A stretch of 64,000 nucleotides of DNA from a virus. Taxonomy: Duplodnaviria > Heunggongvirae > Uroviricota > Caudoviricetes. The stretch spans positions 39,131 through 103,130 of IMG/VR virus record IMGVR_UViG_651053023_000001. One strand, written 5' to 3'. This document shows positions 9,001 through 12,000 of this stretch, in pieces. How positions within the stretch are numbered: position 1 is the first letter of the stretch; each line of letters opens with the position of its first letter. A program made the position numbers.

Positions 9001-12000
9001 CCCAATTAACGGGTAAAGGCCAGCAGTGGTTAACTCGCAAGCTACTTGATGCTGGTTTGTTAAAACCAGTAGCAATAGGTTAACAAAAGAAAAAAACCTG
9101 CCAGCAAACTGGCAGGTTTCTGAGCAGATCGTCCAACCCGATCTGGATCGAGTCAGAAAAATTTGCTCTAATAAATTTCGTTTTCTAAGTGCAAAGAATC
9201 ACCATTTCGAGCTGGTGATTGAAGGTTGATGCAAATTTGGAGAAAAAATGCAACAAACATTCAATGCGGATATGAATATATCAAACCTTCATCAAAATGT
9301 CGATCCTTCAACCACTCTGCCCGTTATTTGTGGTGTTGAAATTACGACCGACCGCGCTGGCCGTTACAACCTTAATGCTCTACACAGAGCGAGCGGACTC
9401 GGTGCCCATAAAGCGCCAGCTCAATGGCTAAGAACGCTGTCAGCTAAACAGCTCATCGAAGAGCTTGAAAAAGAAACTATGCAGAATTGCATAGTTTCGT
9501 TCGAAGGCCGTGGCGGCGGCACTTTTGCCCATGAATTGCTCGCAGTGGAGTACGCTGGTTGGATTTCTCCCGCGTTTCGGCTGAAGGTAAACCAGACATT
9601 TATCGACTATCGAGCCGGAAGATTACAACCTGCTATTCCGCAGAGTCTCCCTGAAGCTCTCCGTTTGGCTGCCGACCTGGCAGAGCAAAAGCAACGGCTG
9701 GAACAAAAAATGCTTATGGATGCACCTAAAGTCGAATTCGCCGAACGCGTTGCTACCGCCAGCGGGGTTCTAATCGGCAACTATGCCAAAGTGCTCGGTC
9801 TGGGCCAAAACTATCTCTTCACCTGGTTGCGTGATAACGGAATTCTGATCGCAACCGGTGAACGCAGGAACGTCCCCAAACAAGAATACATATCCCGTGG
9901 GTATTTCACCCTTAAAGAAACCGTGATCGATACAAGCAATGGAATCAGGATTTCTTTCACGACTCGTATAACCGGCAAAGGTCAGCAGTGGCTGATGAAG
10001 CGATTGCTTGATACTGGTGTGCTGGTACCTGTCGCGGCAACGCGCTAACAGACGTAGTAAGAACCACCAGCATTGTAATGCTGGCTAAAGTCACTTTCCT
10101 GAGCTGTATAACGATGAGCGATTTTACTTTTTCTGGCTATGAATTGGCCTGCTTTGTAACACACTCCGGTCTATCCCGTAGCGCCGGGCATATCCTGTCG
10201 CAATGTGCAAATCTAGCGGCAACAACCAGTGAATACTTCATTCACAAGCCTCACCGCCTGATCGCGGCAGAAACTGGTTATAGCCAATCAACCGTCGTTC
10301 GTGCATTCCGTGAAGCTGTAAACAAAGGAATTCTGTCTGTAGAGATTGTTATCGGCGATCACCGTGAACGTCGCGCTAACCTGTACCGGTTTACACCATC
10401 CTTTTTGGCCTTCGCACAACAAGCCAAAAATGCGCTGATTGAAAGCAAATTAAAGATCTCTTCAGCGGCAACCAAGGTTAAAGCTGTTCTCGCTAAGACA
10501 TTGGCTTTATTTAATTTTTTATCCACACCCCCATGTCAAAATGATACCCCCTCCCCCTGTCAGGATGACGTGGCAATAAAGAATAAGAAGTCACAAGTTA
10601 AAAAAACAGAAAGATCAGTTTCCGGCGGTGCCGGAACGACCAGGCTCAAAAATTTGACTTCCTGGATCGCTGAGGCAAAAGCAAAGGCTGACAATCTGCG
10701 GTTATCCAAAAAACGCGCTCAAAAACATGAGTTCAAGCAGAAAGTAGAGGCGGCAGCGCGGAAATATGCTTACCTGAAGAACAAGCGTTCTCCTGATATT
10801 GGCGGGGTATCAAACTTCGATAATCTGCCGCATTGCATGACGGTAAACGAAGCTCTTAATGCGGTTTTAGCCAAAAATAAAGATAACGAACAATGGGGTA
10901 TACCGGCAGGATTCAGAGGGTGATAGATTGCTCTAATCTGGAGTCACCTGGCGTTTTCAGTTTGAGGTCGGAGATGCAATCTGATTTTTTACAGTTAGCG
11001 ATCGCTTTTGCAGGATATGTTTGTATTGGCTTCTGTGTATACATGATCAGCCGAAAAATGCTTGTCGATATCGACCGCAAAGAACAAGCAGAGGAGATCT
11101 TAGAATGGATTTTCTTTGGCGCGGTCTGGCCATTAGGGATCATGTTTGCTGCAACATTTCTTCTGATGTGGATATTCACCCTTCCAGGTGATTTCTATAG
11201 AAAAAAAGCCAGACATTGATACAATCGTTGCGGGTGCTTGAGGCTATCAGCTTCAGGCATTACCCGAAAAGCAGATAGAAGAAAGCCCCAGATAACATTA
11301 CGCGTCCTGCAAGACGCTTAACATTAATCTGAGGCAATATCTATGCTTAGCATACGTAGATTAGCCTCTTACCGACCAAAAGGTCAAGGAGTAGCAGGCT
11401 ATGAAGCAGCAAAAAGCGATGTTAATCGCTCTGATCGTCATCTGTTTAACCGTCATTGTGACGGCACTGGTAACGAGGAAAGACCTCTGCGAGGTACGAA
11501 TCCGAACCGCCCAGACGGAGGTCACTGTCTTCACAGCCTACGAATCTGAAAGGTAAGAGACCTGGCGGGGAGAGATCCTCGCCACTCTTCGTGTGTCAGG
11601 TATCCTCAATGCACCCTTTCCTCTCCAAATAAAAAAGCTCCCGAAGGAGCTTTAAAATACAAGGGATGACTCTTAATCCCACTCAATCCAGTTGTAGACG
11701 ATACGAAGTGACGGGCGCACAGCGGCAGTCACATCTTCGGTACTAAAGTCGATTGCATCACTGTAGATTTTGCAGTCCAACATTTCAATTGTTGTAGCAG
11801 CTTTTGTCACAGCGTTAACCCCGGAAGATTTGGATTCAGGGGTCGCAGCCATCGTGATATCAACATAGTCCTTCGCCGCAATGCGATCTTTAATGAACTG
11901 AAGAATATCGCCTTCGATAGTCTCCACGCACTGGACCTGGATTTCCCCAGAGTTTCGAATTGGACCGTGCTGGTTGAACTTCACACCATTCGGACCATAG

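Follow-up and report, generated by a model that had tools for sequence, protein, structure and literature searches.

The biology of the hok/sok family is known from the parB locus of the R1/IncFII plasmids, for which 3' processing of the toxin mRNA, cleavage by RNase III, toxicity and post-segregational killing have been described (PMC9841398), and partly from the hokW-sokW locus of 933W and Sp5 (PMC8621323). Experiments have established the latter, which is carried by a lambdoid prophage, as a type I toxin-antitoxin (TA) system, and its reported role is to help with lysis (PMC8621323). Hok toxins have been surveyed in phages, prophages and large plasmids; they are enriched in prophages and on large plasmids, where they are correlated with partition systems (bioRxiv 10.1101/2025.08.07.668861). 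The locus considered here lies in a stretch of 64,000 nucleotides (positions 39,131 to 103,130) of the Caudoviricetes record IMGVR_UViG_651053023_000001. This whole stretch is called the window, and its own coordinates are used throughout. With a probability of roughly 0.85, the locus is a complete hok/sok type I TA cassette on a P1-like phage-plasmid, which would serve as a second, RNA-controlled addiction module beside phd/doc.

The hok/mok locus of Rac (MN652886), an integrated lambdoid prophage, shares about 90% nucleotide identity with the module in the window. The two loci have identical geometry: the mok frame is 207 nt long and out of frame with hok, with its start 58 nt ahead of that of hok and its stop 7 nt ahead of the hok stop codon. 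They also have the same 1-nt insertion and a nearly identical region for the 5' tail of Sok and its target. Rac Hok has Gly37 and the tail YEPEE, whereas window Hok has Ala37 and the tail YESER, and Rac carries its own rho-independent terminator right after the fold-back inhibitory element (fbi), which is missing in the window. The hokW-sokW locus is 85.8% identical to the window over 11220-11616, with a Hok that is 90% identical and with the same order of translational activator element (tac), ucb, extended Sok hairpin, mok Shine-Dalgarno (SD) sequence, downstream complementary box (dcb) and fbi. However, mokW of 933W is in frame with hokW and ends at a common stop codon, the -35 hexamer of its Sok promoter is TTGCCT with a 17-nt spacer, and the region of the Sok 5' tail and mok start differs; the Sok specificity is probably different from that in the window. 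The R1-type locus has the same architecture and order, with homologous tac, ucb, mok SD, dcb and Sok promoter region. Like the window locus, it resides on a low-copy plasmid, and its regulatory logic is that set out in PMC9841398. In contrast, its Hok is only about 39% identical, its Sok hairpin is about 16 nt shorter than that of the window, its mok is read in the frame of hok, and fbi is followed by R1's own terminator. Among the loci of Escherichia coli K-12, hokD (relF) lacks tac, ucb, mok and the Sok leader and has relBE upstream instead, whereas the window has the full set, and hokC (gef) is disrupted downstream by IS186 and has lost its 3' part. Every regulatory element could be placed by an alignment with hokW/sokW, Rac hok, hokC, hokD and the R1-type IncFII locus; a comparison of this kind had been proposed in the initial annotation of the window. 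The features of the module are as follows.

11198-11225, + strand: candidate hok promoter found by the promoter scan (TAGAAA, 16-nt spacer, TACAAT, with TG before the -10 hexamer, i.e., an extended -10)
11232-11616, + strand: core of the hok mRNA from tac to fbi (Rfam match, homology to 933W, fold)
11232-11243, + strand: tac, GGGUGCUUGAGG, at the 5' end of the mRNA; invariant in 65 loci
11281-11351, - strand: Sok antisense RNA gene of about 71 nt (annotated sokW, AF125520, mapped through the alignment)
11285-11295, + strand: ucb, the anti-SD of mok, GCCCCAGAUAA; pairs with 11324-11335, including the mok SD
11331-11335, + strand: mok SD, GAGGC, 8 nt upstream of the ATG at 11343; invariant in 65 loci
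11343-11549, + strand: mok reading frame of 68 codons, out of frame with hok (list of open reading frames, ORFs; PHROG 37205)
11358-11387, - strand: Sok promoter read from the sequence (TTGACC, reverse complement of 11382-11387; 18-nt spacer; TAATCT, reverse complement of 11358-11363)
11364-11368, + strand: dcb, GCCUC; pairs with the mok SD and is part of the Rfam structure
11386-11391, + strand: hok SD, AAGGAG, 9 nt before the ATG (read from the sequence)
11401-11556, + strand: hok toxin gene, 51 amino acids (ORF list; Pfam HOK_GEF)
11563-11584, + strand: 3' stem-loop of 9 bp (folds)
11604-11616, + strand: fbi, CCUCAAUGCACCC; pairs with tac, and the homology of the module stops at 11616

The initial annotation had recognized a Hok/Gef-type type I toxin locus from a 51-residue peptide and an overlapping frame of 68 residues. 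Both frames are in the ORF list, and the assignment is confirmed at the levels of protein and RNA. The peptide matches the Pfam family PF01848 (HOK_GEF) with E=3.1e-20 and 71.9 bits against a cut-off of 22, and it matches PHROG 251 ("MokW-like host killing") at 4.6e-31. It has the features of the family, namely a length of about 50 residues, an N-terminal transmembrane helix and the Hok/Gef C-terminal domain. The NCBIfam model of a Hok subfamily gives 46 bits, which is under its strict cut-off of 73. The identity is 90-94% to HokW of 933W, Rac Hok and K-12 HokD, with 94% for HokD, and 80% to K-12 HokC, compared with the value of about 39% for R1-type Hok. The mok frame matches PHROG 37205 at 9e-20, and its N-terminus is homologous to MokW. 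At the RNA level, the Rfam model RF01794 matches 11232-11406 on the + strand with 109.7 bits (gathering score 59, E=9e-26). This model is named "sok" but represents the hok leader in the sense direction, ending at the hok AUG, so the match identifies the entire 5' untranslated region and not the antisense gene alone. None of the resemblance to hok/sok is due to chance. The span originally given for the locus, 11300-11660, has to be corrected: the unit covers approximately 11198-11616, with the promoter at 11198-11225, the transcript starting at about 11232 and the module ending at 11616, and a start at 11300 cuts off the 5' leader with tac and ucb.

Folding of the RNA, which had been suggested as a way to look for the fold-back of tac and fbi, recovered this helix. 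The full-length RNA (11232-11656) has a minimum free energy (MFE) of -161 kcal/mol, with z=-8.8 relative to shuffled sequences. The MFE fold joins tac to fbi over 12 bp with one bulged base and ucb to the mok SD region, and it also places the hok start region (11394-11409) in a duplex with 11525-11541. The isolated hairpin of ucb and the mok SD has -18.7 kcal/mol and z=-5.2. The same pairings make up the published closed, untranslatable conformation of the full-length hok mRNA (PMC9841398). The long-range pairing that closes the mRNA of this family is found, and so are the alternative pairings. When the leader is folded by itself, the stem of tac and ucb is formed, and when 11329-11370 is folded by itself, a hairpin of the mok SD and dcb appears (-13.8 kcal/mol) with the apical loop CUUAGCAUA, which contains UUAG. 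These two helices of the open form are also those of the Rfam consensus structure. The mok SD can pair in two ways, with ucb in the full-length fold or with dcb in the fold of the sub-region. The 3' stem-loop is expected to protect the processed, shortened mRNA, a role that is taken from the mutagenesis of R1 (PMC9841398); one of its pairs shows a compensatory change from GC to AU in 12 loci.

The conservation of these elements was followed through a scan of IMG/VR, which gave 576 relatives; 80 loci were kept, and 65 distinct sequences from tac to fbi were aligned. The helix of tac and fbi is paired in 100% of the 65 loci, and the five pairs that vary change only from GC to GU, through C to U in fbi. 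The K-12 loci were unusable in this comparison because hokC is cut by IS186 and hokD has no leader. The 130 pairs of the window structure are paired in 94.2% of cells, as against 35-43% with slid partners, although the percentage is inflated by taking the structure from one of the 65 loci, which are close relatives. A few helices carry compensatory changes. In loci outside P1-like elements, homology to the window runs from 11220-11232 through 11616, so the mobile unit extends exactly from the -10 hexamer or tac to fbi, and only the -10 hexamer of the candidate hok promoter falls within the conserved module. The hok frame is intact in all 65 loci, and the mok frame is intact, with its ATG kept, in 64 of them. 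Two bases outside the codons of hok are private to the window copy in this alignment: A at 11249 in the leader and T at 11392 between the hok SD and the ATG, which changes Glu to Val in Mok.

A side observation concerns the Tyr47 codon of Hok. It lies within CCUACGAAU (11537-11545) and has the UACG context of the sites edited by TadA. Such A-to-I editing sites are reported in hokB, hokC, hokD and hokE, in which the editing replaces Tyr by Cys. A hairpin of the TadA editing type was considered for this codon and rejected, as the local fold is no better than those of shuffled sequences (z=0.49).

The antisense partner is predicted with a position that agrees with annotated sokW and sokC, and its gene spans the SD and start codon of mok. 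The promoter on the opposite strand that the initial annotation had proposed, TTGACC and TAATCT, is present in the sequence with a spacer of 18 nt, and it aligns in position with the promoter regions of 933W sokW and R1-type Sok. For the Sok strand, the predicted fold is a long hairpin with a U-rich tail behind it (-29 kcal/mol, z=-4.6). Judged from its sequence, the locus would encode Sok in cis as an antisense RNA that has a promoter and a terminator hairpin of its own. Among the 65 loci, variation is greatest at about 11337-11358, a stretch that comprises the mok start, the 5' tail of Sok and the target loop. Since antisense specificity should be located here, full cross-reaction between sub-lineages is unlikely, and the variation suggests separate specificity classes of Sok. 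The version in the window is nearly identical to that of the Rac prophage.

The overlapping frame had been compared with mok of hok/sok, and this part of the proposal stands: a mok frame with its own SD starts upstream of hok and overlaps it. The likeness is incomplete, since mok and hok are read in different frames here, whereas in hokW, hokC/mokC and the R1-type locus the two share both the frame and the stop codon. The cause is a single inserted base at 11384-11385, where the window has GGTCAAGG instead of GG-CAAGG, which moves mok into another frame than hok. The shifted form is found in the window, its P1-like relatives and the Rac prophage, and 12 of the 65 loci have it. The alternative frame stays open in all 65 hok genes compared, with 68 codons in the window, so the shift costs nothing. 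By analogy with the known systems, translation of hok is inferred to be coupled to that of mok. Through the same inserted base, the Sok -35 hexamer reads TTGACC instead of TTGCCT, and the spacer grows from 17 to 18 nt.

The cassette is embedded in a P1 backbone. Alignment by blastn with P1 (NC_005856) gave 98.4% identity over 9248-10937 and 95.0% over 11631-12800 and no homology in 10938-11630. The order of genes is that of P1 on both flanks (kilA-repL on one side, bplB-pmgG-21-22 on the other), and immunity and addiction genes of the phage are present as well. P1 has the non-essential genes rlfA, rlfB and pmgF at this site (51586-53411, 1,826 bp), as had been expected for the first two. This interval is missing from the window, where none of the three genes lies between repL and bplB. 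The alignment bears out the view that the module is an addition to the canonical phage, as P1 has no such locus at the site, and P7 has a different, longer insert there that is annotated as rapA. The absence from P1 and P7 is a statement on this site; P1 is not known to have a copy of hok elsewhere, which reflects published knowledge of P1, the whole reference not having been scanned. The surroundings of the module contain the following features.

10938-11630, no strand: segment of 693 bp in place of P1 51586-53411, made up of ORF81, the hok/sok module and 14 bp of unique sequence
10974-11219: ORF81, 81 amino acids with two predicted membrane helices, between repL and hok (PGAP annotation; PHROG 3772)
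11634-11653, no strand: hairpin of the P1 backbone, AAAGCUCC-CGAA-GGAGCUUU, identical in P1 (terminator scan, - strand)

The hok module was said to lie immediately downstream of repL, but ORF81 lies between them and takes the position of rlfA. It belongs to PHROG 3772, a family of unknown function; Pfam and NCBIfam gave nothing useful for it, and its exact sequence is found on at least 1,000 contigs at NCBI. A mechanical call of 108 residues that starts at 10893 is probably too long. A weak terminator-like hairpin at 11176-11191 is all that separates the hok module from upstream transcription. The left junction of the segment (10927-10943) is inside the C1 operator Op55: ATTGCTCTAAT is common to the window and P1, after which the sequences diverge, and the 11-bp core of the operator is kept. 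Matches to C1 operators are found at multiple places across the window. The right junction is directly before the P1-backbone hairpin, which is the terminator of bplB on the - strand and the sole candidate for the 3' end of the hok mRNA on the + strand. The full-length hok transcript probably extends to this hairpin. The presence of phd/doc at 57.2 kb, also stated earlier, is verified by the Pfam families PhdYeFM_antitox and Fic/DOC at 57249-57847. Further usual landmarks of P1 are present beside phd and doc, namely the C4 antisense RNA with its a1/b1 targets, three tRNAs and humD (7568-7774; 29152-30809; 56784-57847). Elsewhere in the window there are two identical direct copies of an insertion sequence (IS) of the IS3 family at 43592-44889 and 47195-48455, each with orfA (HTH_Tnp_1) and orfB (rve) and with ALIL frameshift pseudoknots at 43957 and 47523. 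Between them lie fragments of IS66-type and Mu/IS21-like transposases, so that an IS nest is present in the P1-like backbone.

The interval of rlfA, rlfB and pmgF corresponds to "region 5", one of eight stretches that vary strongly among P1-like phage-plasmids (PMC9603915), and it is exactly the interval that is replaced in the window, where its content is ORF81 and hok/sok. The text of that study as searched does not mention hok. The hok-type junction between repL and bplB is found in 6 phage records, including phi456, Ro157c2YLVW and three records named "P1". Among the plasmids of PLSDB, 262 have the hok-type junction and 99 the P1-type rlfA-rlfB-pmgF, and the hok-type junction occurs in 234 of 5,426 complete E. 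coli genomes. Therefore, the description of the module as accessory is valid with respect to the P1 and P7 references but not for the group, as hok/sok is the commonest allele of the site in P1-like plasmids, and laboratory P1 belongs to the minority. The gene pmgF, named for a "putative morphogenetic function", is missing from the majority allele. The toxin is labelled MokW in one Punavirus P1 record and hokD by PGAP, and the exact peptide with Ala37 is found on 77 contigs at NCBI, where it is called "toxin HokD". As a name, hokD expresses no more than the likeness of the peptides, because K-12 hokD lacks the regulatory RNA elements while the window copy has all of them. The literature on P1-like phage-plasmids that was searched contained no discussion of hok at this site, and the Hok survey does not mention P1 or phage-plasmids (bioRxiv 10.1101/2025.08.07.668861). 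This is a gap in commentary and not in knowledge. The locus is ordinary and already annotated; it belongs to a textbook family, and its site was known to be variable. The only points that are mildly new are the out-of-frame mok, the junction in Op55 and the hok allele that outnumbers the reference allele.

From these elements, the following mode of action can be proposed. The cassette would have entered by recombination at the variable region of rlfA, rlfB and pmgF, with its left junction inside Op55. A weak promoter would give a stable hok mRNA of about 400 nt. The sequence and its folding show the full-length mRNA with tac and fbi paired, the mok ribosome-binding site hidden by ucb and the hok start paired, so that it would not be translated. 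If the system follows R1, slow trimming of the 3' end would remove fbi, after which tac would pair with ucb, the mok SD would enter the hairpin with dcb, and the mRNA would become translatable and able to bind Sok. The alternative pairings of tac with ucb and of the SD with dcb exist in the window, yet the step of activation by trimming is taken over from the R1 paradigm. The convergent promoter would produce Sok, some 70 nt long and complementary to the SD and the start codon of mok, which, as in R1 and sokW, would block translation of mok and hence the coupled translation of hok and mark the duplex for RNase III. After loss of the plasmid-prophage, the unstable Sok would be depleted, the stored mRNA would be translated, and the membrane toxin would kill the cell.

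Several observations weigh against this interpretation. In the MFE fold of an arbitrarily truncated mRNA (11232-11598), the open stem of tac and ucb is replaced by a local 5' hairpin, and for this reason the conformational switch is something that we infer. The pair counts given above are inflated in the manner described. In the window, fbi is not followed by the native terminator of the Rac and hokD loci, and on the hok (+) strand the U-tract of the P1 hairpin is poor; the formation of the 3' end may therefore differ, and hok transcripts may run antisense into bplB. Only 3 of 6 bases of the Sok -10 hexamer TAATCT fit the consensus, which is why the generic promoter scan did not report the promoter. 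Residue 37 of Hok is Ala in the window copy, while it is Gly in 62 of the 65 aligned loci and Ser in 2. The change is caused by C at 11510, a base that is found in the window copy alone, and the equivalent position is not mentioned in the main text of the R1 mutagenesis paper. Furthermore, a query of 901 bp has a match of at least 80% identity in 4,745 of the 5,426 E. coli genomes, mostly in the chromosome. These matches probably include related Sok genes that could blunt killing, in which case cross-protection by resident Sok would be a realistic limit on the effect. Finally, post-segregational killing that backs up phd/doc is most likely the role of the cassette, but this choice is made by analogy with R1.

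Other roles of the cassette can be envisaged. It might act mainly at prophage induction, when the level of Sok falls and Hok damages the membrane, leading to earlier lysis and the release of more phage. The hokW-sokW locus of Sp5, with 86% DNA identity, doubled phage release after treatment with mitomycin C, and sokW RNA was lost in a RecA-dependent manner (PMC8621323). The module in the window is co-directional with the C1-controlled lytic operon kilA-repL and lies downstream of it, the core of Op55 is kept, and read-through on induction past the weak hairpin at 11176-11191 could collide with the convergent Sok promoter. Against this stand the holin and endolysin system that P1 itself possesses, the effect in Sp5, which was no more than two-fold, and the promoter that the module carries; the same unit also works on plasmids that are not phages. 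This role is rather unlikely. It is more doubtful still that hok/sok is not solely an addiction module but is wired into the lytic switch itself, in such a way that read-through after derepression silences Sok and releases Hok as an induction-timed lysis aid or a fail-safe. If this were true, the 1-nt insertion, which both shifts mok and improves the -35 hexamer of Sok, would be an adaptation of a sub-lineage.

Abortive infection, in which a virulent phage would stop host transcription and the decay of Sok would let Hok kill the cell before the invader has finished its cycle, to the benefit of sister lysogens, has little probability. R1 hok/sok on a high-copy plasmid lowered the plating efficiency of T4 by 42% and gave smaller plaques, as cited in PMC8621323, and phage-encoded defence has been discussed for Hok (bioRxiv 10.1101/2025.08.07.668861). 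On the other hand, the T4 effect required a high-copy plasmid whereas the P1 prophage is low-copy, the survey saw no enrichment of hok near defence systems (bioRxiv 10.1101/2025.08.07.668861), and PADLOC matched neither the Hok peptide nor ORF81. An inactive relic, or a neutral passenger without effect on stability or phage biology, comparable to several chromosomal hok genes of K-12, might be suggested by the losses in K-12 hokC and hokD, the missing native terminator and the unique Gly37Ala. This reading is very improbable given that all known regulatory elements and both frames are intact, that the helix of tac and fbi shows only pairing-compatible changes in 65 loci, and that the allele is present in 262 plasmids and outnumbers the P1-type allele.

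The addiction module beside phd/doc remains the preferred reading. Beyond correct annotation, in which the misleading automatic name "hokD" is corrected, its importance is little. Nevertheless, it implies that two independent addiction systems, one based on protein (phd/doc) and the other on RNA (hok/sok), would be present in many P1-like phage-plasmids. These elements are important as carriers of resistance genes, and the presence of two systems may help to explain why they are stably carried.

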